The position numbers and the translations under genes were made by a program. The notes beneath the pieces are model-generated. The model saw only the letters and a list, made by a program, of their open reading frames with translations. It was not told the DNA's origin and ran no database searches. Below, in pieces: positions 2,638-21,713 of a DNA stretch of 64,000 nt (position 1 is the stretch's first letter; the number at the start of each line of letters is the position of its first letter). This stretch comes from a virus, in the IMG/VR virus record IMGVR_UViG_3300030329_003230, positions 23,401 through 87,400 of that record; one strand, written 5' to 3'.

Positions 2638-3141
2638 ATGGAAGCTTGGATGAAAGATATACAGTCTAGTTTTAACGATGGAAATGGACTTAAGAGTATA
2701 TTCCATAATGAAAGAAATACATTTCTCCATGAAATCTGGAATCAAAGTATGAATGGATTTGATATCCCAAGGGAAATCCAAGTAGTTATAGATTCTAATA
2801 ATGAATTATTTATGAGTGTAGGAAGTCCTTCTTTTGTATCATTTAATGGACAAGATGAATCCCTTTATGGTAAGAATAATGAAAAGAAGATGAAACTACC
2901 AATCAAGTGTTGGATACATACTCACCCTTTTGGTAAAGCATATTTCAGCGGTACGGACATTTCAACAATCAATACTTGGAAACCACATATGATGTCAGCC
3001 ATAGTTTTAGGGGATAATGAACACCAAGTTTGGCAGAAGGTGAAACCGGATATTGCAAAACATGTTAGATATATTACTGAGACGATTATAGAATTAGGAA
3101 CTAAAAATAAGATAGATAAAATGGTAGAGGAATTGATATGA
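2638..3141 (+). CDS. JAB/MPN+ (JAMM) metalloprotease
   Basis: Upstream E (PREIQV) plus WIHTHPFGKAYFSGTD = HxH-x7-S-xx-D JAMM motif. Confidence 0.85.
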   Translation: MEAWMKDIQSSFNDGNGLKSIFHNERNTFLHEIWNQSMNGFDIPREIQVVIDSNNELFMSVGSPSFVSFNGQDESLYGKNNEKKMKLPIKCWIHTHPFGKAYFSGTDISTINTWKPHMMSAIVLGDNEHQVWQKVKPDIAKHVRYITETIIELGTKNKIDKMVEELI

Positions 3142-3438: not shown

Positions 3439-5013
3439 GTGATAATAATAGGAAATGAAGCAAGAGAAAAAATGTTACAAGGAATAAATCTTACCGCCAA
3501 TGCGGTTAAGCCTACCCTTGGGCCTATGGCAAGAACAGTTGTTTTGAAAGAACGCTCTAAACCAATTATTGTTAATGATGGAGTAACTGTAGCAAAGGCA
3601 ATTCATCATGAAGATGAATTCGTAGATATGGGAGCTAAATTATTGATTGAAGTTGCAACTCAAGCCCAAAACTTAGCGGGTGATGGTACAACTACAGCCT
3701 GTGTTCTTGCCCAAGCCTTCTGTCAAGAAGGAATGAAATTAATAGAAGAAGGTAGTAATCCTGTAAAGATTGCAGAATCTTTGAAGGAAATAGTACATGA
3801 AATATCTGATTCTCTTTTAACGAAATCTCATCTTATTGAGAACTCTGATGAAATAAAACACGTAGCAACAATTGCTGCTAATAATGATAATTATATCGGA
3901 GGACTTATCGCTGAAGCAATAGAAACAGTTGGTAAAGATGGAGTAATTACTGTTAATGAATCTAAAGATATGAACACTACAATTGAGGTAGTTCAAGGAT
4001 TAGAAATAGATAGAGGTTATAGAACCCATCACTTAGCAACAGATAAAGAAAAGAATCAAACTGTTATGGAGAACCCTTTAATTCTGGTATCTAATTTTAA
4101 CATTATACGATTTCAAGAGATAATTCCAATCCTTGAGAAAGTTTCTGCAACTAAGCGCCCACTGTTACTTATTTCAAGAGGACTTGAGCAACACGCTATC
4201 AGTAATTTGATTGTCAACGTTATGGGTGGAGTAGTACAATGCTGTGCAATTGAATCGCCAGATTATGGTTTTGTATCTGATACACTTCTAGAGGATATCT
4301 CTATTGTTGTTGGGGCTAAATTCCTTGATTATCAGACCAATATCAAAATGGAAGAAGTACAAATCGAAGACTTAGGGGAAGCAGAAAAAGTGGTAGTAGG
4401 TGAACTAAGAACTACTATCATTAATGGTTCTGGAGATGAAGAGAAAGTAACAGAAAGAGCAACTATGATTACTAATCACATCAAAGACGCTGATAATGAA
4501 TTTATGGCTGATAAAATGAGAACAAGGGTAGCTAAACTGTTAGGCGGAGTAGCAGTCCTAAATGTAGGTGCAGCCTCTGAAGTAGAGATGAGGGATAAGA
4601 TGGAAAGAATAGATGATGCCCTTAATGCTACTAGAGCAGCAATAGAAATGGGAGTTATTTCTGGAGGAGGAACAGCTCTTGCGGAACTTTCTATGGCAAT
4701 GTCAGATAAGACTGAAGAAGTAGAAAAGGCAGTATTACTGGAGTGTCTATTAACTCCCTACGAACAAATATTGACTAATGCTGGTATTGATTACACTGAA
4801 AAGAAATATCAGAAAAAGAAAGTAAAATTACCACACATTAATGCTAAAAATGGAGAACTTGGAGATATGTATTCACTGGGAATTATAGACCCAGTTAAGG
4901 TTACTATTTCTTCTCTTAATAGTGCTGCTTCAGTAGCGGCTCTAGTATTAACATCAGAAGTATTAGTTGGAGAGGAAGAAAATGAGACTATGCAATCACA
5001 GGGCATGTTTTAA
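3439..5013 (+). CDS. groEL: Group I chaperonin GroEL
   Basis: TLGP, NDGVTVAK, AGDGTTTA, VGKDGVITV, ERIDDALNATRAA, GIIDPVKV; lacks the GGM tail. Confidence 0.95.
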   Translation: MIIIGNEAREKMLQGINLTANAVKPTLGPMARTVVLKERSKPIIVNDGVTVAKAIHHEDEFVDMGAKLLIEVATQAQNLAGDGTTTACVLAQAFCQEGMKLIEEGSNPVKIAESLKEIVHEISDSLLTKSHLIENSDEIKHVATIAANNDNYIGGLIAEAIETVGKDGVITVNESKDMNTTIEVVQGLEIDRGYRTHHLATDKEKNQTVMENPLILVSNFNIIRFQEIIPILEKVSATKRPLLLISRGLEQHAISNLIVNVMGGVVQCCAIESPDYGFVSDTLLEDISIVVGAKFLDYQTNIKMEEVQIEDLGEAEKVVVGELRTTIINGSGDEEKVTERATMITNHIKDADNEFMADKMRTRVAKLLGGVAVLNVGAASEVEMRDKMERIDDALNATRAAIEMGVISGGGTALAELSMAMSDKTEEVEKAVLLECLLTPYEQILTNAGIDYTEKKYQKKKVKLPHINAKNGELGDMYSLGIIDPVKVTISSLNSAASVAALVLTSEVLVGEEENETMQSQGMF

Positions 5014-6844: not shown

Positions 6845-7049
6845 TTTTAGTTACAATAGAGACTGGGAAGAGATAGAAATCATGCTAGATTTTGCAGAAA
6901 GAAAACAAAATAAACATTATTCTGAAATGCAAAATTGTAACAAAGGAGAACGAATGTACCATATGAGAAATTACAAAGCATTAGAAGGAGTAATTAAATC
7001 TCTTAGGTGGGTTTTAGGGGATAAAAATATAGAACACCCTTTAGAATAG
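6828..7049 (+). CDS. Hypothetical helical protein
   Basis: ORF ending LEGVIKSLRWVLG...HPLE. Confidence 0.55.
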   Translation: MIMMSNFSYNRDWEEIEIMLDFAERKQNKHYSEMQNCNKGERMYHMRNYKALEGVIKSLRWVLGDKNIEHPLE

Positions 7050-7057
7050 GTGAATAG

Positions 7058-7165
7058 ATGAAAAGGTGTGCTCATAAATATAAGTGCCACTTGAGGGGGA
7101 TGTCTTGGTGTACCGTCTGTGGATTAACTTTGTTAGAGAGTGAAAAAGATGAAAAAAAAATATGA
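7058..7165 (+). CDS. Unannotated 35-aa Zn-finger microprotein
   Basis: GGTGA SD; MKRCAHKYKCHLRGMSWCTVCGL... Confidence 0.5.
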   Translation: MKRCAHKYKCHLRGMSWCTVCGLTLLESEKDEKKI

Positions 7166-8220: not shown

Positions 8221-9738
8221 ATGAAATGGGTAGAATTCAGCAGATTAAATCAAGCAATAGAAATGTTAACGCCGACAAAAACAATTAGAATGTTATCAAA
8301 GGATTATCCAGAAGAGTATTTATCATTCATTAAAATATTATCTTTAGAACTACCCGCAAATAATTTAGCCAGCAAGAAGGCTATGAAATGGATAACTAAT
8401 GCTTTAGAAGTGTTTGATGATGAAATAGAATCTGCTATCTATATTCATGGAGATATAGGGGAAGCAATGTATCATTTTACTGAAGATGCACAAGACTCTA
8501 ATTTTAGCCTTGAAAGAGTTATAGATTTTTTATCTATGGATTGTAGCAAAGGTGATGGTGAGTCTTTTTCAACATTTAAGAATGTCTTTTCTTCTATGTC
8601 AGCATTAGAAAAGAAATGGTTTCTAAGGTACTGGTTAAGAACACCAAGGAATGGAATTAACTCTGGATTAGTGAAGAAGTTATTAGCCAAGGTGTATGGT
8701 AAGAAAGTAGGAGATATTACTAATCATCACCAACTACATTCTTTATCTGATATTGCTATGTATTACAATAAAGGACAAGAACCACCTAATGATTTGGAAA
8801 TTGGTAGATTTATTTCTCCAATGTTAGCTAAGGTAGTTCCTAAAGAAAAATGGCCTATGTTATTCATTATTGAATACAAGTACGATGGGGCAAGATATCA
8901 AATCCACAAAGGAGATGCAGTCATCATTTTCAATCGTAAAGGGAAAGTAGTTACAGAAAAATTCCCTGATATAGTAGAACAGGTTATTGGTTGGAATATA
9001 CCTGAGTCTTTCATTATTGATACTGAAATTTATCCGGTTGAGGATAATGGACGGCCAGCCCCTTTCAAGAAAATGGGAACTCGTATTCATTCTAAGAATG
9101 TGCAAGAGGCTATTGAAAAATGCCCAGTAAAATTAGCAGTGTTTGACTGTATGATGTTTAATGATGAAAATCTAATGGGTTTACCTTTAGAAAAGCGGCT
9201 TAAAATAATAGATAAATTTCCAGACTTAACGGAAAGAACTCCTCAAATGAAACATGATATATTCTATAATTTAGCAATTAATGATGGTTATGAAGGAATA
9301 ATGATTAAAGATTTGAATGCTCCATATGAAAGTGGTAAGCGTTCAATTGCTTGGGCTAAACATAAACCACCTAGATTCGAATTAGACGTGGTAGTTACTG
9401 GAGTTAGATACGGAGAAGGAAAAAGGGCAACAGTGTTTAGTTCATACGATATTGCTGTTAAAGATAAAAATGATTTCATTTCCATAGGAAGCATAGGTAC
9501 GGGTTTTTCAGAAATAGATTTAATCTATTTAACCAATGAAGCAAAGAAGATAATTCTATCAGTTGAGAATGGAACTTATACCCTCTCACCAAGAATAGTT
9601 TTAGAAGTAACTTGTGATTTAATAACTCAAGATAATGAAGGTAATTTAGGGTTAAGATTCCCTAGATTACTTAGAATAAGAAATGATAAACCTGTATCTG
9701 ATATTAATACAATTGAAGATATTGAAAATATGGTGTAG
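8221..9738 (+). CDS. lig: ATP-dependent DNA ligase (archaeal type, replication arm)
   Basis: PMLA, EYKYDG (motif I), IIDTE, FDCM, EGIMIK, WAKHK, LRFPR. Confidence 0.95.
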   Translation: MKWVEFSRLNQAIEMLTPTKTIRMLSKDYPEEYLSFIKILSLELPANNLASKKAMKWITNALEVFDDEIESAIYIHGDIGEAMYHFTEDAQDSNFSLERVIDFLSMDCSKGDGESFSTFKNVFSSMSALEKKWFLRYWLRTPRNGINSGLVKKLLAKVYGKKVGDITNHHQLHSLSDIAMYYNKGQEPPNDLEIGRFISPMLAKVVPKEKWPMLFIIEYKYDGARYQIHKGDAVIIFNRKGKVVTEKFPDIVEQVIGWNIPESFIIDTEIYPVEDNGRPAPFKKMGTRIHSKNVQEAIEKCPVKLAVFDCMMFNDENLMGLPLEKRLKIIDKFPDLTERTPQMKHDIFYNLAINDGYEGIMIKDLNAPYESGKRSIAWAKHKPPRFELDVVVTGVRYGEGKRATVFSSYDIAVKDKNDFISIGSIGTGFSEIDLIYLTNEAKKIILSVENGTYTLSPRIVLEVTCDLITQDNEGNLGLRFPRLLRIRNDKPVSDINTIEDIENMV

Positions 9739-10269: not shown

Positions 10270-10650
10270 GTGACTAGTTGGATGGTGGTGAATTTGGAGA
10301 TTCATGAGAGTAATAGGATAAAGCAAAGATGGACTGATATTTACGGAAAAATCACCGTCATTAATTACATGGTTTATGGTGATATAGGACAAAGAGATAT
10401 GTCCGTCATTAATTATGCTCTAAAAAAAACTTTTAATTTACATAAAACAGTTCAAATTGTGGAGCATATTGATTTCGAAATGGCAGAATTATTTGACATA
10501 TATCAAGGTACACATGTACAATGGATATTTCCAGATGAAATAAAAAATAAAGATAAAGTTATCCATCTAATAAAAGAAGGGTTAGAATTTCAAAGAATAA
10601 AAAGTGAATTTATGGGGGCTACAGTAGATGTTTACCAAAGAACAACTTGA
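10270..10650 (+). CDS. Hypothetical protein
   Basis: ORF in the operon; start uncertain. Confidence 0.5.
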   Translation: MTSWMVVNLEIHESNRIKQRWTDIYGKITVINYMVYGDIGQRDMSVINYALKKTFNLHKTVQIVEHIDFEMAELFDIYQGTHVQWIFPDEIKNKDKVIHLIKEGLEFQRIKSEFMGATVDVYQRTT

Positions 10651-11071
10651 AGGGATTATTGTTGCGTTAGCAAATCCTGAGATATCAATAGAGAAAGATG
10701 ACAAACAATCTATCGGTTATAGAATACGATTGAGAATTCATTTTAGGGCTATGAATGAAGATTTCATTTTAATACTAAAAGAAACATTAGAAGAACACGG
10801 TATAGATACTTATTATAGAAATAGAGAAAAAGAAACTAGACCTTACCCTTTACTTAGAATAACTAAGGTAGATAACATGTTTAATTTATTGAAGTTAATT
10901 CCTAAGAACTTAGAGTGGAATAGAAACTTTTCAAGTTTTTTAGAAGTATTAACCATAGTATCAAACAAGCACCATTTGGTGCAAAAAGGATTCGATAGAA
11001 TAGTAGAAATTAAAGAGGAGGCGAGCGGTTGGCGTTGGTGTCGATGGGAAATAAAGAAAGACCTATATTGA
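10628..11071 (+). CDS. Degenerate single-domain LAGLIDADG-fold protein
   Basis: QLEGIIVALAN helix, then ISIEK...GYRIRLRIHF and C-terminal HLVQKGFDRIVEIK, typical of I-CreI-like enzymes; no catalytic acidic residue in the helix. Confidence 0.55.
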   Translation: MFTKEQLEGIIVALANPEISIEKDDKQSIGYRIRLRIHFRAMNEDFILILKETLEEHGIDTYYRNREKETRPYPLLRITKVDNMFNLLKLIPKNLEWNRNFSSFLEVLTIVSNKHHLVQKGFDRIVEIKEEASGWRWCRWEIKKDLY

Positions 11072-11880
11072 TAACTGGAAAAACCGGCACAGGTAAAACC
11101 ACTATGGCTAAATCTTTAGTTAATGATAATCATATTATGTATTATGCTAATGAAATAGAAGATAGAGATTGGAAATCCATAGAGCAAGATATCGTTATTG
11201 AGGAAGTACATTACAAGCCTAAAAAAGATATTATCATGAACATAATACGTCACTGTAAAACTACTATTGTATTAACTTCTAATAATGAAAAGGACGTACC
11301 TGCTGACATTAAGAATTCATGTAAATTAAGAAGGGCAGGAACTGTCCCTCATTCTTTAGAAGAGATTAAGAAAATAGCACCAAGGAGTCAAAATCCTAAA
11401 AATAAAGATATGAGTGTATTTGAGTTAGTTCAAGATTATTTGAAGAACACTAATAGAGATGAAGTTGCTAGTAATCTGAAAGAAAACAAACCAGCAGATG
11501 TTCAGATAATGACTTGGTTAGGTATGAATCTTAATCCAAATAAATTAGCATTCGTTGATGGTAGAGTCAAAAGAAGATGGTCACAGAATTACTTCTATGA
11601 ATTATTATCTTACTGCCATGATGGTAGAATGCATTCTAAAATTAATTATCCGAAAAGAGGAGCATATTCCAAAGTACCAACTATATTGAGGAAATTGAAA
11701 ATAAAACCAAACCAAGGTTATTTGTTACCTCAGTTATTACAAGACGAAGATTTTGAGGGATGGGCAAAGAAGAGACTAAGAAGCGATGAAAGTAGAGTGA
11801 TAGGTATGAAAGATAGAAAGAAGAAAAGAAACGCACCAATTACACCAGATAGAACTTTGAAATTAGAAGGATGGTTTTAG
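11029..11880 (+). CDS. Clamp loader large-subunit-like AAA+ protein
   Basis: Walker A GKTGTGKT, IVIEEV Walker B, VLTSN; adjacent to RFC small; C-terminal LEGWF is PIP-like. Confidence 0.7.
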   Translation: MALVSMGNKERPILITGKTGTGKTTMAKSLVNDNHIMYYANEIEDRDWKSIEQDIVIEEVHYKPKKDIIMNIIRHCKTTIVLTSNNEKDVPADIKNSCKLRRAGTVPHSLEEIKKIAPRSQNPKNKDMSVFELVQDYLKNTNRDEVASNLKENKPADVQIMTWLGMNLNPNKLAFVDGRVKRRWSQNYFYELLSYCHDGRMHSKINYPKRGAYSKVPTILRKLKIKPNQGYLLPQLLQDEDFEGWAKKRLRSDESRVIGMKDRKKKRNAPITPDRTLKLEGWF

Positions 11881-12794
11881 ATATGTTATGGACAGAGAAG
11901 TATAGACCCAAGAGTATTCATCAATTGATTGGACAAGAGGGTTTCAAGTTAGATGCTGAACATTGGATTGAGAACAAAGATATGCCAAATGTATTGTTAC
12001 ATGGCCCTGCTGGAGTAGGAAAAACTGCCGCAGCCGGTATTCTCGCATTAGAGATATTGAAACAAGAAATAGATTCTAATTTCTTTGAGATTAATGCAAG
12101 TGATGATAGGAGACTAGAAGTTGTAAGGACTACTATCAAAGATGTAGCACAACAACAAGCAATAGGTAATGTTCCTTTCAAGATTATTCATCTTGACGAA
12201 TTAGATGGTATGACTCCTGATGCTCAAAATGCATTAAAGAGAATTATGGAAAGGTATGCACATAACGTGAGATTCATCATAACTGCTAACGATAGAAGTA
12301 AGATAATTTATCCACTACAATCTCGTTGTGCTAACTATTATTTTTCAATATTAGATAACGATACAATTTCAACATTATTGATGACAATTATTCAAAATGA
12401 AGAATTATCACAACCATCAGAGACAGACTTAGCCACTTTTATAAGTCACTATAATGGTGATGTCCGTAGAACAATAACGGAGTTGCAAGCCGCATTTGCA
12501 AGTGGAATAAGCCTAAGAAAACAGACCGACAAAAGTTTGGAGCGTTACGACGAAATATTGAACTTATTAGTGGAGGAAAAATATAATCAAGCATTAATAA
12601 GATTACACGATGCTATTTATTCTGGAAAAACTGTGAAAGATATTTGTTATGGATTACACGAAGTTATTGTTAAAAGTGATATGACTGATAATCTAAAATT
12701 CAAATATCTAAGAGCGGTTGGTGAAGCAGAATGGAGAGGAAATTCAATGACCCCAAGAGTATTAATTTCTTGGGTAGTATCTCAATTGAGGTAA
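11871..12794 (+). CDS. rfcS: Replication factor C small subunit
   Basis: WTEKYRP, GPAGVGKT, EINASD, LDELD, AQNALKR, LQSRC, GDVR. Confidence 0.95.
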   Translation: MVLDMLWTEKYRPKSIHQLIGQEGFKLDAEHWIENKDMPNVLLHGPAGVGKTAAAGILALEILKQEIDSNFFEINASDDRRLEVVRTTIKDVAQQQAIGNVPFKIIHLDELDGMTPDAQNALKRIMERYAHNVRFIITANDRSKIIYPLQSRCANYYFSILDNDTISTLLMTIIQNEELSQPSETDLATFISHYNGDVRRTITELQAAFASGISLRKQTDKSLERYDEILNLLVEEKYNQALIRLHDAIYSGKTVKDICYGLHEVIVKSDMTDNLKFKYLRAVGEAEWRGNSMTPRVLISWVVSQLR

Positions 12795-12841
12795 GTAAAG
12801 AGTAAAAAAAAAAGAATAGAAAAAAAAAGGAGAATGATAAA

Positions 12842-14068
12842 ATGGAAGAACAAATGAAAGAAGAAATAGAAAAATATGCTGAAGTTATTGGCATTACGGT
12901 TGAGGATGCTTCAAGCATCTTTGATGGTATTGTCAAAGATAATAGTTTGGACGTAAGCACTGAAGAGGGACTCTTAGTAGCCCGAAGTGTCTTTAGGTCT
13001 AAATTTGCACAAACTAGAGCACGACTGAAGAAAGAAGAAGGTGGAGAAGAACAAACAACAACTGAATACACTGGCCCTACCTATACTCAAAAGGCAAAAG
13101 GATTCTTTTGGGCTGTAGAAAATGCTACTGATTGGGAAGAAAGAAACAGAAATAGTATTATGGCCGAATACCAAAGAGATGCTGATTCAGTTTTACAGAC
13201 TGGAAAAGCAGCGATAGCAGTTCAGCTATCTGATGGTAGGTATGAAGTTACTCTTGTATTAGATGGAGAAACCAATACTAAAGTTATGGAAAAACTACCA
13301 GAAGTAAGCCCAATGCAAGTTGATGATGACCGCTGGATTATACCAGTCGATAATCGTAAAGCTTGGGGAAGTGGTCAATCAAATCCATCTTATGGTAAAC
13401 CTCTACCCGCTAACCGATGGCAAAGAACTCTAATGTTTATTGGTAGTGTTGGTGATGGAGAACCTCAGAAATACCAGTTACGAGTTAATGGAGAACAAGC
13501 AATAGATTTCCATCCAAGGACTTTTGCTCTGTGTGAATTTGACTGTGTTCCTAATTCTAACAACCCTTCTAACCTTAGTGCAAGAAAGGATGGAAGTACA
13601 GTTAATTCCCTATCTTATTTAGATGAAGAAGTGGATATATTGAACATAGTTCAGGAACTATTAGGAGATAAGATTTCAGCATTAATTGCTCTAGACTCTT
13701 ATCATTCTGATAATTCACATAAGAATTATTCTGAGAGAATTGTAGTTACAGATGGTAATGTTGCTAATATGAATCTACAACCTTATGATAATGGGAACCG
13801 AGTTATCTATCTAAGTGACTTGAATGCAGACTTCGATTATGAAGGAGAAGGTTTCTCTTCAACTGCATGTTGGGTTCCTTCTACTATTGAAATCGATTTT
13901 GGAATCGGCAGCAACATTATTGTTGTTGGTCGTACCTCCCAAAGAGAAGTTGATGGCGAACTATCAAATGTTAGTATCAACGTTCTAGGGTTATATGTTG
14001 TGGATAGACATGGTAGTGCAGATGTTCCTGTACAACCAGAGGAGGACGACGATTACAGTTGGTTCTGA
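12842..14068 (+). CDS. RPA/SSB-like OB-fold protein
   Basis: Position in the replisome cluster, beta-rich C-terminal OB-like segment (FGIGSNIIVVGRT...SINVLG) and an acidic-aromatic tail (EEDDDYSWF). Confidence 0.6.
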   Translation: MEEQMKEEIEKYAEVIGITVEDASSIFDGIVKDNSLDVSTEEGLLVARSVFRSKFAQTRARLKKEEGGEEQTTTEYTGPTYTQKAKGFFWAVENATDWEERNRNSIMAEYQRDADSVLQTGKAAIAVQLSDGRYEVTLVLDGETNTKVMEKLPEVSPMQVDDDRWIIPVDNRKAWGSGQSNPSYGKPLPANRWQRTLMFIGSVGDGEPQKYQLRVNGEQAIDFHPRTFALCEFDCVPNSNNPSNLSARKDGSTVNSLSYLDEEVDILNIVQELLGDKISALIALDSYHSDNSHKNYSERIVVTDGNVANMNLQPYDNGNRVIYLSDLNADFDYEGEGFSSTACWVPSTIEIDFGIGSNIIVVGRTSQREVDGELSNVSINVLGLYVVDRHGSADVPVQPEEDDDYSWF

Positions 14069-14069
14069 A

Positions 14070-14187
14070 TAAGATAATTTAGGGGGTTTTGCCCAGTAAT
14101 AAGTAGGGGCCATCATCACCATGTCAGGGCATTACGGTCACTTTATCGGTTTTTGTGACTGTATTCTACTTCCCCCCACTTATCTTA
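14070..14187 (+). ncRNA. Putative structured cis-RNA with pseudoknot, copy 1
   Basis: Nested stems TAAGATAA/TTATCTTA, GGGGG/CCCCC, AAGTAGGG/TTCTACTT and TACGGTCAC/GTGACTGTA; pseudoknot TGCCC/GGGCA; ends at the AAGGAG SD. Confidence 0.6.
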
Positions 14188-14200
14188 AGGAGAGATAATT

Positions 14201-15085
14201 ATGGGATTAACATCAATGAGTAAACCAAAACAAAAACAAGCAGTCGATTCTGAACTACAAAAAGAACTACAATATCAGAATTGGAAAAAATTAACTGCGG
14301 AAGCAAGGAAAGAACAACTATCAAGGAAACATTCTTTCATGGTTCTATCAATAGAAGGACAAGCAAAGAAAGGAAAATCTGGATTAGGTCTTGATATTAG
14401 AACAGAAAAAGAAATAGAAGAAGGACATCTTATTCGTTTCTTAGATTTTGATGACGGAGCAGAAGCGACTTGGAAAACCTGTTGGGATTCCGATGAGAAT
14501 ATTTTCGTTTATTGCCCTAATCATTACAATAGCGACGGAACAGAGAACTATTCTTTAACAATGCAAAACGCCATGAATTTCATTAGAGAAACAGAAGAAA
14601 TGATTGCAGATGAAGAAACTAATGTTAGAGCAATTATTGTTGATGGAATGGATAAATGGAATGATTGCGTTACTAATAAATTACGATATGAAAGAGTAAA
14701 AGGTGATAGAAAGAAAATGCAAGAACCAATCCCTCCAACAGCATATGGAGCTAGGAATATTGACCATAATGAGTTGTTTATTAGTGTCTTGAAATTGAAT
14801 TGTGATAAAGTATTCATAACTCATTTGAAGCCTACATTTGGCGACCATATGAACCCTACACCAACAGGTTATGTTGCTTCTTGGAATAAAGACGTTCCAG
14901 ATAAGATGCTTCAAATGATTAGTATTAGAGATGACAGTGTAGGTAACAATATCAAGTATGTTGCTAGATTGAAGGCAAGTAAAACCAATCCACACATGAT
15001 TGGTAAAACTTGGACTATCTTTGAATCTAAAGGGAATAAAGCCACATGGAATGGTATCCCTGAAATGCAAACGAGGGAGATTTAA
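14201..15085 (+). CDS. RecA-fold ATPase (Sak4/RadB/AAA_24-like recombinase)
   Basis: GQAKKGKS Walker A, LDFDDG, IIVDG Walker B, VFITH. Confidence 0.7.
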   Translation: MGLTSMSKPKQKQAVDSELQKELQYQNWKKLTAEARKEQLSRKHSFMVLSIEGQAKKGKSGLGLDIRTEKEIEEGHLIRFLDFDDGAEATWKTCWDSDENIFVYCPNHYNSDGTENYSLTMQNAMNFIRETEEMIADEETNVRAIIVDGMDKWNDCVTNKLRYERVKGDRKKMQEPIPPTAYGARNIDHNELFISVLKLNCDKVFITHLKPTFGDHMNPTPTGYVASWNKDVPDKMLQMISIRDDSVGNNIKYVARLKASKTNPHMIGKTWTIFESKGNKATWNGIPEMQTREI

Positions 15086-15087
15086 TT

Positions 15088-15204
15088 CACTAATTAGGGG
15101 TTTGCCAAATAAAAACAACAGAGTTCGTCTACCCGTCACGTCACTTAATAAGTGTAAGGGCTCGGCAAGGGAGGATGGCTTCTTCCTGTTGTTCCCCATT
15201 AGTG
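15088..15204 (+). ncRNA. Putative structured cis-RNA with pseudoknot, copy 2
   Basis: CACTAAT/ATTAGTG, GGGG/CCCC, AACAACA/TGTTGTT, GAGTTC/GGGCTC, GGGAGG/TCTTCC; pseudoknot TTGCC/GGCAA; lies just before the AAGGTGA SD. Confidence 0.6.
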
Positions 15205-15220
15205 TAAACAAGGTGATAAT

Positions 15221-16000
15221 ATGGAAATAGAAGTAAATAAAAAACAAATAGTTGAAGCATTGAAAAATGTAGAAATGAGAGGAAAGTGGGCATCGTCCAG
15301 TGGTTTATCTTCAAAGTCTTTAGGAAATTATATTTATTTTAAATTAGAAGATAATCATTTATTGTTGATTAATTCTGATGAATCTACAACTGTTATAGAA
15401 TCACTATCTGTTGATTCTGAAGATGAAGGTTCTTTCGTTTTAGATATTGAAACTTTAAAGAAGTATTTGACTAAAATGAATGATACGATTACATTTGAAA
15501 TTGGCGATACAATCGTAATGAAATCAGATGGTAAAAGAGCAACAATGCCTATTGTTATTGAACACCCGTATCACGGTAGAATTGGTAGATTTGTTTCACA
15601 GTGGCCAAACCTTTCCTTTGAAGAGGAGTTAGAAAATATACCTAATGTTGGTTCAATGAATCTAACTTGTGCTATACAGATGACAGGAGAACAACTGTTT
15701 GATGCACTTGACGCTTGTGAAATTGTTAACAATGGAGTCTACAAAATTGATTATGTAGAAGAAGATGAGTTAAGTGAATCTAAGTGTGTTATATCCTCTG
15801 AAGAAATCATCTCATCTTATCGGGAAGAGATTGAATATTTATCCTCAATTGGGGAATCTTCCACGGTTCTTTTCAGTGGACCATTACACCGATTCTTCAG
15901 TAAGAAAGACACTATCAATGTCTTCATTGGAGATGACCAACCAATAATTATGATTAGTAATAATAGCGCATTGATACGTGCTCCAAGATTGAATATTTAA
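15221..16000 (+). CDS. pcn: DNA sliding clamp (PCNA-like)
   Basis: 259 aa acidic, two-domain clamp pattern (EGSFVLDIETLKKYL; INVFIGDDQPIIM...IRAPR); context of RFC and PolB. Confidence 0.75.
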   Translation: MEIEVNKKQIVEALKNVEMRGKWASSSGLSSKSLGNYIYFKLEDNHLLLINSDESTTVIESLSVDSEDEGSFVLDIETLKKYLTKMNDTITFEIGDTIVMKSDGKRATMPIVIEHPYHGRIGRFVSQWPNLSFEEELENIPNVGSMNLTCAIQMTGEQLFDALDACEIVNNGVYKIDYVEEDELSESKCVISSEEIISSYREEIEYLSSIGESSTVLFSGPLHRFFSKKDTINVFIGDDQPIIMISNNSALIRAPRLNI

Positions 16001-16009
16001 GGTGAAGGA

Positions 16010-17164
16010 ATGAGACAAACCTATCGTAATATGCCCTCTATGAGAGAGACACATCCTCATCTTGCTGAGGAATTTCATCCAACTAAGAATGGTGATTTAA
16101 CTCCTGATAATTTAATAGCAGGGACTAGTAAGAAAATCTGGTGGACATGTTCTACTTGTGAAAATGAATGGAAGACTAGGGGTGCTGACCGGACTTCAAG
16201 GGGACGAAAATGCCCACATTGTAGTCTTGGTAGATTACATTCAGATGGTAGAAACTCAATGGCTAACACCCACCCTGAATTAGCCAAAGAATATCAAGGA
16301 GATGCTACAAAAATAATAGCAGGAACGCATAAAAAGTTAGATTGGAAATGCTCTACTTGTGAACATAAATGGAAGACAAAAGGAAACAGTAGACAACAAG
16401 GAAGTGGTTGTGGTTATTGTGCCGGTCAATGTCTACATTCAGATGGAAGAAATTCTATGGCTAATACTCATCCTCATTTAGCACTTGAATACCAAGGAGA
16501 CGCTACAAAAATAATAGCAGGTACAATGAAGAAACTTCCTTGGAAGTGTTCCACTTGTGACCATGAATGGATAGCAGCAAGTTCTAGTAGAAGACATGCA
16601 AATCAGGGGTGTCCATGTTGTTCAGGAAGAGCGGTACATTCAGATGGTCGTAATTCAATGGCTAATACTCATCCACATTTGGCCAAAGAATATCAAGGAG
16701 ATGCTACAAAAATAACAGCAGGTACAGACAAACACCTTCTTTGGAAATGTTCCACTTGTGAATATAAGTGGTTAACTAAAGGTAAAGTTAGGGGTGGTAA
16801 ACAAGGCAGTGGATGTCCTTCTTGTGCAAAAAGGGCCTTCCGACCTAATGAAGCAGGTCATGTATATCTTATGAAATATGAAGGAGCAAATGAGAAAGTC
16901 ATTTACAAAATTGGAATATCTCATGATGTGGAGGAAAGGAGGAAAAAACTTCTTTCTAAGTATCTACAGAAAACACACTCTGAAATAAATATAGACATCA
17001 TTGACACAATGTACTTTGATACTGGTAAAGATGCAATGGAAATGGAAAAAACATTTCACGCAATGGAAGAACACCGTTTTACACCGAAAAAGAAATTCGA
17101 TGGTTGGACTGAGATGTTCAAAGCCTCGATTGTAGATGTATGGAATAGGATGGTAAAAACATGA
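16010..17164 (+). CDS. Zn-ribbon repeat (DUF4379/treble-clef) protein with C-terminal GIY-YIG-like (T5orf172) nuclease; probable homing endonuclease
   Basis: Four W.CSTC.H.W...GCP.C units with THP.LA.E, then VYLM...YKIGIS..VEERR and GWTEMF. Confidence 0.75.
   Translation: MRQTYRNMPSMRETHPHLAEEFHPTKNGDLTPDNLIAGTSKKIWWTCSTCENEWKTRGADRTSRGRKCPHCSLGRLHSDGRNSMANTHPELAKEYQGDATKIIAGTHKKLDWKCSTCEHKWKTKGNSRQQGSGCGYCAGQCLHSDGRNSMANTHPHLALEYQGDATKIIAGTMKKLPWKCSTCDHEWIAASSSRRHANQGCPCCSGRAVHSDGRNSMANTHPHLAKEYQGDATKITAGTDKHLLWKCSTCEYKWLTKGKVRGGKQGSGCPSCAKRAFRPNEAGHVYLMKYEGANEKVIYKIGISHDVEERRKKLLSKYLQKTHSEINIDIIDTMYFDTGKDAMEMEKTFHAMEEHRFTPKKKFDGWTEMFKASIVDVWNRMVKT
16238..16825 (+). repeat. Three tandem ~200-bp coding repeats
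   Basis: CATTCAGATGG... begins at 16238, 16436 and 16637 (periods 198 and 201); encodes HSDGRNSMANTHPxLAxEYQGDATKI. Confidence 0.9.
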
Positions 17165-17264
17165 GAAGAAAAACATTCGCACGTTGGTCATTGAAAAATC
17201 TACGTCAATTCTATCTTTCTAAATTGAAAGTAAAAGTTGTCACTGATGAATATGAATATGAGGA

Positions 17265-18932
17265 ATGGGAATATCAATGATTATATCTTGGATAGATAAA
17301 GACAAATCCATCAAAATAAGATGGAGAGATGAAGATAATAATCGTAAAGAGAAGAGTATAAACGATTTTGAACCATACTTTTTTATCCGTTCTATTGATA
17401 AAAGGCCAGAAACTTACAAGACTAAACATTACATTGGTCAAGGTAAATCAGTAAAACAGACGGGTTTTTTCAAATATAAAACTGGAAAGTATTACAATTT
17501 GAATAAAGAATCATTAACTAAAGTGTTCTACTCTCATCCTAAAGATGCAAAGAGTGCAAGAAATAACTTTTCTGCTACTTGGGAAGGAGATGTTCCTATT
17601 CTCCGTAGATATTGTGTTGACGAATTAAAGGCGGTTCCTGAATATGAATTGCGTAAATGGTATTGGGATATGGAATGGCTACCGGATGAACATGAACACG
17701 GTGGAGCAATTACTGCCATTAGTGTATATGATAACTATACTAATAAAATCAAATTATATTGGTGGAGCCATTGGCACGATAAGTCAAACACAATTATGAG
17801 AAGATTTAATTCAGAAAAAACAATGCTTGAGTCCTTCGTAAAAGATATGCAAAAGCAAGACCCTGATATGTTAATTGCTTGGTGGGGATTACAGTCTGAC
17901 GTTCCTAAATTAATTCAAAGATTATTTGATAATGGTATTGACCCAAGAGGACTTTCTCCCTATAAAGAAGTGAAGGGTGTAGGTTTTAACCATGTTAGTA
18001 AGTTAGATTACAGCGGAATTGAACAACCCATAAAAGGTAGATTATGTCTTAACTTAGATTTAGCATTTGAAAGACAATGGATGGATGCTCAAAGGGGAAC
18101 TCTACCTTCAACATCATTAGAATACTGTGCAAGTGTTTCTGTAGGTGAAGGTAAAAAGAAAGAGTCTAAATTTAAAGATAGAAATGAATTCTTTATGAAA
18201 GCGTGGGAAGAAGATACAACTAATTATCTTGAATACTGTATGCAAGATTCAGAATTACTTTATCGAATAGATGAGGAAATGGGATTAAGTGAAGGAGTAT
18301 TAGCAATTCAGAAACTAGTTAAAACACCCTTTGAAGATTGTTTCTTTGTTAGTCACATGGGAAGTACATATTTCATGAGAAACGCATGGTGGAAAGCCCC
18401 AACTGGGAAACATGCTGAAAAGAAAGAATATGATGGAGCATTAATCTATAATCCTCTTGACGAGGGAACTAATGGGTTACATACTAATGTAGCCGCTTTT
18501 GATTTCGCTTCTCTTTACCCATCGTGTATTCTTGCAAGGAATATATCTTGGGAAACTAAGAGTGAAACAGAAACAGAATTTGCTGTTAACATAAGAACAC
18601 CTAGAGACTTTTCAGATGTCACCCAAGAAGATTGGAAATACTATAAGACGGATGAGTTAGGTCTTTTACCAAATGCTATAGCTACTTTAAAGCCATTAAG
18701 GAAAGAATATAAAATTAAAATGTTAGAGGCTCTAAAATCAGATAATAAGAAAGACTACATTAAATGGAATTCAATGCAAATGGCAACAAAGCGACTATTA
18801 GCTTCTTTTTATGGAGTAGTTGCTTTACAGGGTTTTGGATGGTATGACGTGGATTTGGCTGCAAGTATAACAGCAAGTGCGAGAGAAGCAATTAGAGAAG
18901 CCGCATTTAAAGTGAGGGAGTTATCAGTATGA
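17265..18932 (+). CDS. polB: Split family-B DNA polymerase, N-terminal part (3'-5' exonuclease, motifs A and B)
   Basis: ExoI WDMEW, ExoIII YCMQD, DFASLYPS, KRLLASFYG; ends before motif C. Probable start at 17277. Confidence 0.9.
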   Translation: MGISMIISWIDKDKSIKIRWRDEDNNRKEKSINDFEPYFFIRSIDKRPETYKTKHYIGQGKSVKQTGFFKYKTGKYYNLNKESLTKVFYSHPKDAKSARNNFSATWEGDVPILRRYCVDELKAVPEYELRKWYWDMEWLPDEHEHGGAITAISVYDNYTNKIKLYWWSHWHDKSNTIMRRFNSEKTMLESFVKDMQKQDPDMLIAWWGLQSDVPKLIQRLFDNGIDPRGLSPYKEVKGVGFNHVSKLDYSGIEQPIKGRLCLNLDLAFERQWMDAQRGTLPSTSLEYCASVSVGEGKKKESKFKDRNEFFMKAWEEDTTNYLEYCMQDSELLYRIDEEMGLSEGVLAIQKLVKTPFEDCFFVSHMGSTYFMRNAWWKAPTGKHAEKKEYDGALIYNPLDEGTNGLHTNVAAFDFASLYPSCILARNISWETKSETETEFAVNIRTPRDFSDVTQEDWKYYKTDELGLLPNAIATLKPLRKEYKIKMLEALKSDNKKDYIKWNSMQMATKRLLASFYGVVALQGFGWYDVDLAASITASAREAIREAAFKVRELSV

Positions 18933-19054
18933 AAAGAGGCGAAAGAAAAGACGGTAGCGTTGAAAAACACTGCGGAATTCGTATAGCGTCTAAGTGGAAT
19001 TACTGCCCGATGTGTGGTAAGAAAAAAGAAAAAGAGGTGATTAAATGGGTATAA
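18929..19054 (+). CDS. 41-aa Zn-finger microprotein inside the polB split
   Basis: MKRGERKDGSVEKHCGIRIASKWNYCPMCGKK...; ATGA overlap with the polB-N stop. Confidence 0.55.
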   Translation: MKRGERKDGSVEKHCGIRIASKWNYCPMCGKKKEKEVIKWV

Positions 19055-19085
19055 AATATAAAATAATTACAAAGGTGATAGCATA

Positions 19086-19175
19086 ATGAAATTTCATATT
19101 GTTAGTTTGTTAATTATAATAATTAGTGCTATATCTATTCTTTGGGCTTGGTGGAAAGGGAGAATGGGGGATTAA
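19086..19175 (+). CDS. 29-aa membrane peptide inside the polB split
   Basis: GGTGA SD; MKFHIVSLLIIIISAISILWAWWKGRMGD. Confidence 0.5.
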   Translation: MKFHIVSLLIIIISAISILWAWWKGRMGD

Positions 19176-19319
19176 ATGTTAGTTAAATGTCAAGAGTGTT
19201 CAACTCAATTTAGTATTAATATGTGGTCAACTATGAAACATCTATGTGGTAAGTGTTACCTTGAATATAAAAAGGAAATAAGAGAAGGCAAAAGGAATAG
19301 ATTAGGGAAGATGATATAA
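19176..19319 (+). CDS. 47-aa Zn-finger microprotein inside the polB split
   Basis: MLVKCQECSTQF...LCGKCY...; its TAA overlaps the ATG of polB-C (TAATG). Confidence 0.55.
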   Translation: MLVKCQECSTQFSINMWSTMKHLCGKCYLEYKKEIREGKRNRLGKMI

Positions 19320-20245
19320 TGGACGTAGTTTATGCACATACAGATTCCCTTTATGTCCCTATACCATCAATAGAAGTTGCTCAAGATGTTCAAAAAATAT
19401 TGAATAAACACATACAAGAAGTAGTGTTTCCTAATATTATGAATTTAGAATCTCATCCTATGGATTTAGAATTCGAAAAATACTATTCTGTATTAGGAGT
19501 AGGAGCAACAAGAAATAGAAATGCTGGTTACATTAATTGGAAAGATGGAGTATATCTTGCTGAACCTGAGTTCTTCGCTACAGGGTTCTCCGTTAAGAGA
19601 ATAGCTGAATCCAAATTAGCGAAAGAGGTACAGAAGAAAACCTTGGAGATGTGGATTAATCAAAAAACAGAACAAGAGATTGTTACCTTTGTTAAGAAAA
19701 AATATAATGATGTTCTTAAAGGTAGAATAGATAAATTAAACTTAGTTAAAAGAAGTAGAGTTAAAGAAAATAGAATGACTCTAAAATGCAGGTGTAGAAA
19801 GAAATACAATGTAGATTATGTTAGAAAATTGTTGAGTGTATTACCTGAATCCTTATGTGAAAAGGATAATTGTAATAGTAAATTAATCTCTTGTACCACT
19901 GTAGAAGATAAAAGACCCTCTTTCGGTGGAGGGTTTGCTGGTATGTTATATTATAATGAGCACATTAATCCTCAACAAAAATTAGATGATTCGTTTTACC
20001 ACATTAAGTGTAAATTTGGTATTAACCAAAAACAGACTTTTACTAATTGGAATGGTAAAGAGAATAAAGCTGGATATATAGCGGTTAGAAATTTAGAAGA
20101 ATTAGAACCATTTGAGCCAGATTGGCCATTCTTAGCAGAAGCAGAGGTTCTTAAAAAAGTGAAACCTATATTCGAAGCGATGGAATGGGATATATCTCAA
20201 ATAAAAATAGATGAGAGTCAAACAAGTTTAGGAGATTGGTTTTAA
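19319..20245 (+). CDS. polB: Split family-B DNA polymerase, C-terminal part (motif C, thumb, PIP box)
   Basis: Starts MDVVYAHTDSLYV (motif C variant), LEFEK, Cys cluster in the thumb, C-terminal QTSLGDWF PIP box. Confidence 0.88.
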   Translation: MDVVYAHTDSLYVPIPSIEVAQDVQKILNKHIQEVVFPNIMNLESHPMDLEFEKYYSVLGVGATRNRNAGYINWKDGVYLAEPEFFATGFSVKRIAESKLAKEVQKKTLEMWINQKTEQEIVTFVKKKYNDVLKGRIDKLNLVKRSRVKENRMTLKCRCRKKYNVDYVRKLLSVLPESLCEKDNCNSKLISCTTVEDKRPSFGGGFAGMLYYNEHINPQQKLDDSFYHIKCKFGINQKQTFTNWNGKENKAGYIAVRNLEELEPFEPDWPFLAEAEVLKKVKPIFEAMEWDISQIKIDESQTSLGDWF

Positions 20246-21259: not shown

Positions 21260-21713
21260 AATATTAGAAAAAATAAATAGTAAAGATTGGAAATTCCATG
21301 AACTTCTTAAGTTAAGAGAAGCAGCGCAAGGAGTCGCTAAAGAATTGTATCATGAATTAGAAGTAACTTCCCTATTAGAGATGATGTGGGAGAAGAAAAT
21401 AGGTAGTGAAACATGGGGTTTTGTATTCAAAAAACACGCTATTGAAGAACTGGAAGAAGAAGTAATGAAAATTTTTCAAAAAAAGTTTGAATCAGCCACA
21501 GTTAATTTCGATGAAGGTAAAGTGGAACCAGTAGTAGAAATAACTGCTGAAAAACCAGCTTCATTAACAGAAAAATACACTAAAAGTGATGACCCGATGA
21601 AAGATTTAATCGAAGGTAAAGATGTTATTCCTGAGAAGAAAGAAATAAAGTTAGAAGAAAAAGATGGAATGGTTAAGACTAGAGCAGGCAATGTAAAGGT
21701 AAAGAGGGTATAG
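21249..21713 (+). CDS. Hypothetical protein
   Basis: ORF with a GGAGG SD. Confidence 0.6.
   Translation: MKDKILEKINSKDWKFHELLKLREAAQGVAKELYHELEVTSLLEMMWEKKIGSETWGFVFKKHAIEELEEEVMKIFQKKFESATVNFDEGKVEPVVEITAEKPASLTEKYTKSDDPMKDLIEGKDVIPEKKEIKLEEKDGMVKTRAGNVKVKRV

Follow-up and report, generated by a model that had tools for sequence, protein, structure and literature searches.

The 64-kb window analysed here (bases 23401-87400 of the 87.4-kb viral record IMGVR_UViG_3300030329_003230 from IMG/VR; the whole record is labelled G000, and G- and L-numbers are labels for the viral genomes and loci compared) holds a replication gene cluster. Two non-coding gaps in this cluster flank a 294-aa open reading frame (ORF) that resembles Sak4. 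The first gap follows a 408-aa ORF, the second precedes a PCNA-like ORF, and all genes near both elements lie on the + strand. An initial annotation had described the gaps as two copies of one unannotated pseudoknotted RNA. Sequence comparison shows that both gaps contain a genuine, conserved pseudoknotted RNA module not described before, here called copy A and copy B, and that the two are paralogues within a new family of RNA modules that fold autonomously. Their parts are as follows.

14066-14068, + strand: TGA stop codon ahead of copy A
14071-14186, + strand: copy A, whole element, from the stop of the 408-aa ORF to the Shine-Dalgarno (SD) sequence of the Sak4-like ORF
14071-14077, + strand: outer helix P1 of copy A, AAGATAA, pairing with TTATCTT at 14180-14186
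14082-14086, + strand: closing G helix of copy A, GGGGG, pairing with a run of 5-6 C at 14172-14177
14087-14102, + strand: linker of copy A, TTTTGCCCAGTAATAA; its 5' part is the pseudoknot strand, followed by the conserved A-rich RUAAUAA
14090-14094, + strand: TGCCC of the copy A pseudoknot, complementary to GGGCA at 14127-14131
14103-14106, + strand: P2 of copy A, GTAG, pairing with CTAC at 14166-14169
14134-14162, + strand: P4 hairpin of copy A (ACGGTCAC ... GTGACTGT), found in the minimum-free-energy and centroid structures
14187-14192, + strand: SD AAGGAG after copy A, with the ATG at 14201
15083-15085, + strand: TAA stop codon ahead of copy B
15088-15204, + strand: copy B, whole element, from the stop of the Sak4-like ORF to the SD of the PCNA-like ORF
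15088-15094, + strand: P1 of copy B, CACTAAT, pairing with ATTAGTG at 15198-15204
15095-15096, + strand: TA bulge of copy B
15097-15100, + strand: closing helix of copy B, GGGG, pairing with CCCC at 15194-15197
15101-15115, + strand: linker of copy B, TTTGCCAAATAAAAA, made of the pseudoknot strand and then the A-rich AAAUAAAAA stretch
15102-15106, + strand: TTGCC of the copy B pseudoknot, complementary to GGCAA at 15164-15168, with the conserved GGG that opens P4 directly 3'
15116-15120, + strand: P2 of copy B, CAACA, pairing with TGTTG at 15187-15191
15169-15186, + strand: P4 hairpin of copy B, GGGAGGA TGGC TTCTTCC, located without reference to the linker
15210-15216, + strand: SD AAGGTGA after copy B, with the ATG at 15221

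These coordinates bear out two statements of the initial annotation, namely that the gaps share one order of stems, linker, P2 and hairpins, and that each element starts just after a stop codon (14066-14068 and 15083-15085) and ends at or before an SD (from 14187 and 15210). The distance from the upstream stop to P1 is 1-3 nt (2 nt in each window copy) and that from P1 to the SD is 0-5 nt; this packing is tight in all copy-B orthologues. The linker follows the pattern UUU + N3-8 + RUAAWA in all copies. Complementarity is kept where sequence is not: P1 of copy A is wholly different in its orthologues, and the P4 strands of copy B vary among lineages. RNAfold recovered the outer helix, the G/C helix and the inner hairpins in both copies. 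Of note, the stretch from the SD to the ATG after copy A contains AGATAA (14193-14198), with which TTATCT (14180-14185) of the P1 3' strand could also pair; the alternative hairpin would place the SD AAGGAG in a loop, and this pairing is not kept in the orthologues, whose P1 differs.

A search with the 294-aa protein retrieved 43 viral loci at 71-95% identity, and copy B was present in every locus that reaches the spacer. A covariance model (R1) built from 29 distinct copy-B sequences found it in 43 of 44 sources at E below 1e-11, scoring the window's copy B at 104 bits and copy A at 22.1 bits. Two further R1 matches in the window (37698-37786 on the minus strand, and 6994-7061) both lie inside ORFs and were dismissed as noise. 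A MAFFT alignment of full copy-B elements was poor in the middle, and RNAalifold predicted only 2 pairs from it; covariance models and custom parsing were used in its place. Across 30 distinct copy-B sequences, P1, the G/C helix and P2 are kept with compensatory changes. The nested helices were paired in 83.4% of cells, compared with 38-52% when the 3' partner was slid by 1-3 columns; double changes occurred in 10 of 18 pairs, none of 500 shuffles did as well, and the covariation score was 0.398 against 0.03-0.13 in the slid controls. The second helix (94.2% paired) occurs as GGGG/CCCC, GAGG/CCUC and AGGG/CCCU, and the third, P2, shows changes on both sides in all 5 pairs. A family-wide alignment of the core (48 distinct rows comprising copies A and B and the Ubl and intron copies described below) was 91.3% paired against 57-69%, with helix 1 at 95.3%, double changes in 5 of 5 P2 pairs and 0 of 500 shuffles as good. 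Both alignments were fitted by Infernal to the structure under test, which favours that structure; a mere alignment artefact is unlikely in view of the slid controls and the range of pair types. G·U pairs outnumbered A·C combinations in the helices by 34:12 and 29:9. This excess, together with an A-U to G·U change in an intron pseudoknot (AAACAAA to GAACGAA), favours an RNA read from the sense strand. The module thus has homologues and covariation in related marine viruses, and it is a structured, pseudoknotted RNA, as first annotated.

The pseudoknot proposed between linker and junction was examined separately. When the first 11 bases of the linker were searched for duplexes with the whole interior, without constraint, 28 of 30 copy-B sequences had the partner immediately ahead of the conserved (A)AGGG. 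A position-restricted swap test, with the target window fixed by locating P4 without reference to the linker, covered 11 linker haplotypes: own pairs averaged 7.0 bp and -6.9 kcal/mol, swapped pairs 5.1 bp and -2.9 kcal/mol, and 0 of 50,000 permutations were as good as the own pairs. L037 failed because of a mis-set P4 anchor, and L021 carries an A·C mismatch. The same test over the whole interior was weaker and noisy (149 of 20,000 permutations as good, own interiors often ranking 2nd to 8th). The variants include GCC/GGC, ACC/GGU, GCUA/UAGC, ACUA/UAGU, GUUG/CAAC, GUCUAA/UUAGAC, GUCC/GGAC and GCCCGAA/UUUGGGC. The claim of a pseudoknot therefore stands for copy B, whereas the 5 bp of the window's copy A are not significant alone (193 of 200 shuffles as good).

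Copy A was found by R1 upstream of the 294-aa gene in 26 of 39 relatives with upstream sequence, and in L042, always on the sense strand. Its single-sequence pseudoknot is mostly no better than in shuffles. The close orthologues L003 and L005 have 8-9 bp (1-3 of 200 shuffles as good), and one group of variants carries UUAUCU/AGAUAG (L006/L010), UUAUCC/GGAUAG (L024) and UUAUC/GAUAG (L022, L041) at the matching place; the compensatory change from L006 to L024 backs a pseudoknot in copy A as well. In about 7 of the 18 distinct variants (L017 type), a plain hairpin replaces P3, P4 and the pseudoknot. Copy A is absent at 10 loci, six of which have the genes abutting as TAATG or TGATG and the others spacers of 7-42 nt, three of them short SD repeats. 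At L031:1543-1574 and L033:2962-3003, both lacking copy A, the spacer consists of 2-3 tandem ATAAGGAGAA, i.e., a duplicated SD. L037 and L038 have a plain 70-nt GC hairpin at the copy-A site, and L035 an aberrant version.

A protein profile added 24 further loci at 36-41% identity. At the Sak4/PCNA junction of these relatives R1 found nothing, its best match (15.8 bits) lying elsewhere. In 18 of 19 distinct junctions the Sak4-like gene ends and the PCNA-like gene begins within one ATGA, without a spacer, the 19th junction being cut off. Copy B thus originated in the ancestor of the clade at ≥71% identity, between translationally coupled genes, and copy A was either gained or lost within that clade. 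From these junctions, A and B are lineage-specific insertions between genes that overlap (ATGA or TAATG) in relatives.

The absence of the module from Rfam held when checked. Rfam 15 gave no match at the gathering threshold in the 64-kb window or in the relatives L274, L275 and L286. Over 13900-15400, at E up to 10, there were six chance-level matches, mostly to small nucleolar RNAs, scoring 12-17 bits against thresholds of 40-298, and no ribozyme model among them. The minus strand of copy A matched the C/D-box small RNA (sRNA) sR47 at 16 bits, below its threshold of 40; this match was rejected as chance, the region being unconserved in orthologues. ARAGORN found no tRNA or tmRNA in the window, in agreement with the annotated lack of a tRNA core.

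A new class of small self-cleaving ribozyme, cutting polycistronic and array transcripts into units, could account for some of these features. The strand connectivity is that of the hepatitis delta virus (HDV) fold, a nested double pseudoknot, and the HDV order (P1, P2, P3, P1', P4, P2') is found in copy B and in the intron copies, with P1-like, P2, P3 and P4 helices, the 3' strand of the first being followed by GG. The few invariant nucleotides sit at helix junctions, and the module is multi-copy, intergenic, tandem and tRNA-associated in viral genomes, a placement typical of phage hammerhead, twister, pistol and HDV-like ribozymes. However, in HDV-like ribozymes the cleavage helix begins with a G in a G·U pair and the catalytic C lies in J4/2, whereas the pseudoknot 5' strand starts with U in all copies of the module and the gap between P4 and the P2 3' strand of copy B is 0-1 nt, leaving no J4/2 strand for a catalytic C. 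One subtype of copy A has C or U before GAA at the J4/2 place. P3 varies or is missing, the two ends are joined by an additional closing helix, no Rfam ribozyme model matches even at E up to 10, and a self-cleaving RNA would have no obvious use in a protein-spliced intron. We consider a ribozyme rather improbable.

The initial annotation counted two copies; the genome holds at least four, namely A, B, one in the 3' untranslated region (3'UTR) of the Ubl gene and one in a tRNA-Lys intron.

G000 21314-21364 (L046:1414-1464): Ubl 3'UTR copy, GUGG / UUUGCCAGUAAUAA / hairpin GGGA...UCCC / CCAC

The hairpin loop of the Ubl copy pairs with the linker over 10 bp (0 of 200 shuffles as good), and a further hairpin, a T6 run and a promoter-like box lie 3' of it. 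In the Ubl orthologue of G006 the fold is kept with a different P2, and a refined model, R3, scored it at 22.7 bits although it was not in the training set. A core model (R2) of closing helix, linker and P2, trained on members including B, A and the Ubl copy, scored these at 61.3, 35.6 and 22.4 bits, respectively, and an untrained copy A (L027) at 53.5 bits. Its next untrained match in the genome (G000 18771-18846, 16.7 bits) lies inside a tRNA gene. The Rfam tRNA model scores G000 18728-18892 at 53.5 bits, with a 92-nt insert after position 37 and the anticodon UUU, hence tRNA-Lys; the stretch G000 18642-18892 (L045; L264), outside the window, carries tRNA-Leu(UAA) followed directly by this intron-bearing tRNA-Lys(UUU). 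The intron borders form a canonical bulge-helix-bulge (BHB), GCGGG-CUUU-UAA-UGACG ... CGUCA-GAAG-AUA-CCCGU, and the body reads UUU-GUUU-AAUAAAAA-P2(GAAAAA/UUUUUC) with the pseudoknot partner AAACAAA-GG.

Two further intron variants were found by pattern scan, in G006/L130/L257 and in L258-L263, the six intron-bearing tRNA-Lys genes among eight stretches matched, the other two being unrelated. The splice motif (hBHBh') and the exons are nearly unchanged in the three variants, while three helices covary: h' (UGACG/CGUCA, UGGCA/UGCCA, UGACGG/CCGUCA), P2 (GAAAAA/UUUUUC, GGGAAU/AUUCCC, GAAGAA/UUCUUC) and the pseudoknot (UUUGUUU/AAACAAA, UUGUCC/GGACGG, UUUGUUU/GAACGAA). R2 found two of the variants untrained (L258 at 23.3 bits, L263 at 22.4 bits) and missed the G006 type. 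A DNA search of five related records with the tRNA-Lys gene gave no match; G001, G002 and G004 each have a single 72-nt tRNA without intron, that of G001 being tRNA-Arg(UCU). A scan of genome contigs for the intron pattern returned at least 120 stretches, of which the archaeal L143 and L145 are not tRNA genes. The pseudoknot 5' strand tends to be the same within a genome: UUGCC recurs in A, B and the third (Ubl) copy, and UUUGUCCAG in both copy B and the intron of G006.

Because a canonical BHB tRNA intron has this core as its body, A and B could themselves be introns removed from the mRNA by the archaeal splicing endonuclease, and the 4-bp G/C helix of copy B is indeed flanked by small unpaired stretches. 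The sequence largely refutes this. By inspection, neither copy has the succession of helix, 3-nt bulge, 4-bp helix, 3-nt bulge and helix outside the closing helix: in the window's copy B, P1 forms 7 bp without interruption beyond a 2-nt bulge and the opposite strand lacks a second 3-nt bulge, and copy A has a 4/2-nt internal loop and a 5-6-bp G/C helix. The border motif was seen in the tRNA-Lys copy only (G000, G006/L257, L258-L263) and not around A or B, and excision would not restore the ancestral gene overlap. An mRNA intron is thus extremely doubtful. A less improbable but still unlikely idea is that the module is a mobile, archaeal intron-like RNA core that moved among the tRNA anticodon loop, mRNA spacers, the 3'UTR and arrays, and that may self-cleave, ligate or resist exonucleases.

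R3 was run on 20 viral records and matched 13. In the distant group it found untrained members away from the Sak4/PCNA junction, in G014 (31.7 bits), G011 (29.6 bits) and G007 (26.1 bits), and these belong to tandem arrays.

L275:869-1877 (G011): about 4 tandem modules
L294:1556-2545 (G007): 5 tandem modules, in a region orthologous to that of G011
L274:1387-1995, minus strand (G014): 3 tandem modules

These counts are provisional because most units rest on weak covariance-model scores or on reading by eye. The array regions span 0.6-1 kb of non-coding sequence and may each be one large modular non-coding RNA; two of the modules are 270-330 nt long. Their closing helices are diverse (UAGAG/CUCUA, GGGUAGAGG/CCCUCUACCC, GUUGGG/CCCAAC versus GUCGGG/CCCGAC, UUGGG/CCCAA and GUCGG/CCGAC), and each unit read has a matching pseudoknot. 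The flanking genes are unrelated to those of the window: a UvrD-like helicase, a pyrimidine-dimer glycosylase (Pyr_excise) and unknowns. Simple pattern matches were also seen at window positions 7009 (in an ORF), 30884, 47489 and 60696, and those of G003 and G005 outside known sites were rejected as lying in coding sequence.

The genes around the window copies, and others recognised in the window, are listed below.

1847-2410: ThiF, confirmed
2638-3141: JAB, confirmed
3439-5013: Cpn60 chaperonin, confirmed
8221-9738, + strand: ATP-dependent DNA ligase
10628-11071: HNH endonuclease gene of the replication module
11871-12794, + strand: RFC-like clamp loader
12842-14068, + strand: 408-aa ORF without a family
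14201-15085, + strand: 294-aa P-loop ORF, Sak4-like by its Walker motifs, with no Pfam or PHROG match
15221-16000, + strand: 259-aa PCNA-like ORF, with a weak processivity-factor match
16010-17164, + strand: DUF4379/T5orf172 endonuclease-like ORF
17265-18932 and 19319-20245, + strand: family-B DNA polymerase, in two ORFs

The genome also encodes XPF/ERCC4 and an SU10-type capsid protein; a 287-aa ORF at 396-1259 had no Pfam match at E up to 0.001. The phage database gave no DNA match for window 12800-17200 and only distant protein matches (under 30%) for the PolB. In the available excerpts of Philosof et al. 2017 (PMC5434244), magroviruses are described as having a chaperonin within the replicative cluster, as well as tRNAs. 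The gene content agrees with that description as far as the excerpts go, and the genome therefore appears to be magrovirus-like. A palindrome (CCATATGG) followed by a AACCTTAATA-type promoter-like box occurs at G000 11860-11925 and 14190-14250, outside the window; such boxes lie about 25-28 nt ahead of AAGGG-ATG starts, a spacing that fits archaeal TATA-type promoters and very short leaders. The linker was considered as an archaeal promoter and rejected, the AACCTTAATA-type boxes of the genome being unlike it. The family-B polymerase is split by a 386-nt gap (18933-19318) without an Rfam intron match, and this split, with the nearby DUF4379/T5orf172 and HNH endonuclease genes, suggests mobile-element traffic in the replication module.

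Could the module then be a selfish DNA repeat, like a miniature inverted-repeat transposable element (MITE) or a repetitive extragenic palindromic (REP) element, or a transposing intron core, with no RNA function and a fold that merely avoids harm? Presence and absence vary among close relatives, insertions fall between formerly overlapping genes, one genome offers several contexts, homing-endonuclease-like genes are at hand, and orthologous tRNA-Lys genes combine near-identical exons with very different intron bodies. Thermoproteales tRNA introns that are alike at different sites have been read as transposition (Fujishima 2010, as cited in excerpts of PMC4090602). On the other hand, the copies have no conserved terminal sequences: their closing and outer helices differ among all copies and keep complementarity only, unlike transposase-recognised ends. 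No target-site duplication pattern was seen, Pfam and PHROG scans of 36 ORFs gave no transposase, and a genome carries few copies (2-5). In all 43 sources of the clade copy B is fixed, with purifying selection on a complex pseudoknot. We regard a purely selfish repeat as quite unlikely.

Taken together, the core runs, 5' to 3', through a closing helix, UUU with a variable pseudoknot stretch, the A-rich RUAAWA(A), P2, a variable interior carrying the pseudoknot partner followed by GG(G), usually the P4 hairpin, the P2 return strand, U(U) and the closing helix. The family is limited to magrovirus-like viruses and occurs between cistrons, in a 3'UTR, in a BHB tRNA intron and in tandem arrays. All of these are transcribed, non-coding places read on the sense strand, and nothing else is common to them. 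Such a range of sites speaks for a self-contained fold that has a generic effect on its transcript or is recognised or processed by one common factor. A sensor or operator serving the recombinase and clamp genes in particular is improbable, since the same core lies in an intron, in a 3'UTR with a T-tract and in arrays beside unrelated genes; the proposal of the initial annotation that it controls recombinase and clamp levels as an operator or riboswitch is disfavoured on these grounds. A more general riboswitch aptamer for a small molecule, acting on downstream translation in the mRNAs and on splicing in the tRNA, is very unlikely. It would suit the junction and pseudoknot architecture, whose conserved junction nucleotides resemble many aptamers, the end of P1 beside the SD and the SD-looping hairpin that copy A alone can form. 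That hairpin is unconserved, however, and the SD lies unsequestered, outside the conserved helices; no Rfam riboswitch matches, the sites of the module include a 3'UTR and arrays of up to five, and no gene association is consistent (neighbours are RPA-like or unknown, Sak4-like, PCNA-like, Ubl, tRNA, UvrD-like helicase and Pyr_excise genes).

The persistence of the unpaired UUU, the RUAAWAA, the GG after the pseudoknot and the junction U(U) while all helices change would also be expected of a binding site for one viral or host RNA-binding protein. The modules beside SDs would then act as translational operators, and the arrays and the excised, probably circular intron as decoys soaking up the same protein, in the manner of CsrA sites and their CsrB-type sponge RNAs. 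Even copy-A variants that show no evident pseudoknot retain the linker, modules stand singly beside SDs and also in arrays of 3-5, and copies within a genome tend to have a common pseudoknot 5' strand. Neighbouring genes differ between sites, however, with no candidate protein emerging, and the fold alone, with an A-rich strand in the pseudoknot groove, can account for the conserved nucleotides. We rate protein binding as unlikely, if worth keeping in mind.

The explanation that we favour overall, at a probability of roughly 0.45, is a new mobile, self-folding RNA family that acts in cis on its carrier transcript. How it would act is more tentative; the compact fold may influence the stability, processing or cistron coupling of the transcript. 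P1 of the window copies would clamp the insert shut, bringing the upstream stop near the downstream SD and isolating the fold from coding RNA. As the ancestral genes overlapped, P1 plausibly preserves stop-start proximity and shields the fold. The module could thus be a punctuation element of the polycistronic replisome mRNA, serving as an exonuclease block or processing landmark and tuning how stable and how well translated the flanking cistrons are relative to each other, a role like that of bacterial REP elements. With its pseudoknot 5' strand followed by 6-9 A-rich bases and then P2, the module matches the strand order of H-type pseudoknots. As in that class, the A-rich bases probably occupy the groove of the pseudoknot helix, which would explain their conserved length and composition.

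Several observations weigh against a cis-acting RNA family of this kind. Single-sequence folding energies are ordinary relative to shuffles (z = -0.80 for A and -1.66 for B), so that the two window copies alone are weak evidence and the proof is comparative. In each array one unit passes the model at E below 1e-3, the others reaching E 0.05-0.3 or being recognised by eye. Descriptor scans, used solely to locate candidates, are unspecific, shuffled genomes giving similar counts (0-20 matches). No RNA run was listed for window 13600-15700, and three metatranscriptomes from one sample whose DNA contains the locus yielded nothing. A role in stability or coupling leaves the same fold in an intron body unexplained, as well as the A-rich sequence kept in copy-A variants that seem to lack the pseudoknot; for this retention a bound protein or an active site would be at least as good an explanation. 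The host, too, is indirectly assigned: we infer an archaeon because a BHB tRNA intron needs the archaeal splicing endonuclease, which is independent evidence.

To our knowledge, structured non-coding RNAs of archaeal viruses are almost unexplored. Within the portions available, supplements aside, the literature on magroviruses, archaeal-virus non-coding RNAs and Poseidoniales riboswitches describes neither the element nor an intron-bearing magrovirus tRNA. The module offers one well-supported RNA fold in four transcript contexts, in viruses of very abundant surface-ocean archaea, and a small object (50-120 nt) for studying the punctuation, stabilisation and coupling of archaeal operon mRNAs. 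It also bears on whether archaeal intron bodies spread to non-intron sites. If the core is indeed mobile and intron-like, archaeal viruses would gain their first described family of structured RNA elements that are evolutionarily mobile, one that connects protein-spliced introns with intergenic repeats.

Among known systems, the operator of T4 gene 32 consists of a simple pseudoknot in the 5' leader, at which binding of the protein encoded by that gene is nucleated. It shares with the window copies a pseudoknot in non-coding RNA of a viral replication operon, near a ribosome binding site; in contrast, the module is closed by outer helices, is an insertion missing from relatives, and also occurs in an intron, a 3'UTR and arrays, contexts outside leaders that argue against an autogenous operator of this type. 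In type III toxin-antitoxin systems such as ToxI/TenpI, near-identical tandem pseudoknot repeats precede a toxin endoribonuclease gene. The arrays resemble them in having tandem pseudoknotted units with A-rich single strands upstream of a gene, but their units (60-330 nt) are mutually unlike and not direct repeats, and no toxin endoribonuclease family matched the genes adjoining the arrays. Tandem pseudoknot antitoxin RNAs of this type (PMC12283969) also occur in viruses.

Bacterial REP elements and the bacterial interspersed mosaic elements (BIMEs) built around them, as well as Correia repeats, are short structured operon inserts after stops, with a plausible role in differential mRNA stability or processing. 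Like them, the module is a short, multi-copy, structured, sense-oriented insert after stops and is sometimes clustered. It differs in that its stems conserve pairing and not sequence, a pseudoknotted junction replaces the simple palindrome, copy number is very low, no associated transposase was seen and the carrier is an archaeal virus. Archaeal introns can themselves carry structured RNA, the tRNA-Trp intron containing a C/D-box sRNA. The tRNA-Lys copy is a canonical archaeal BHB intron at position 37/38, with the motif in three variants. Most members, including A and B, are non-intron and without a splice motif; what they have in common is the pseudoknotted core, and their sites include mRNA intergenic spacers and a 3'UTR. 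As with the "transposing" tRNA introns of Thermoproteales (Fujishima 2010, in the excerpted account of PMC4090602), related sequences lie at several unrelated sites of one genome. The nearest precedents are the archaeal tRNA introns recurring at several sites in Thermoproteales, as cited in PMC4090602, and structured intergenic repeats of bacteria. The module can be grouped with the structured cis-elements and repeats of viruses, although there is a genuine possibility of something more unusual.

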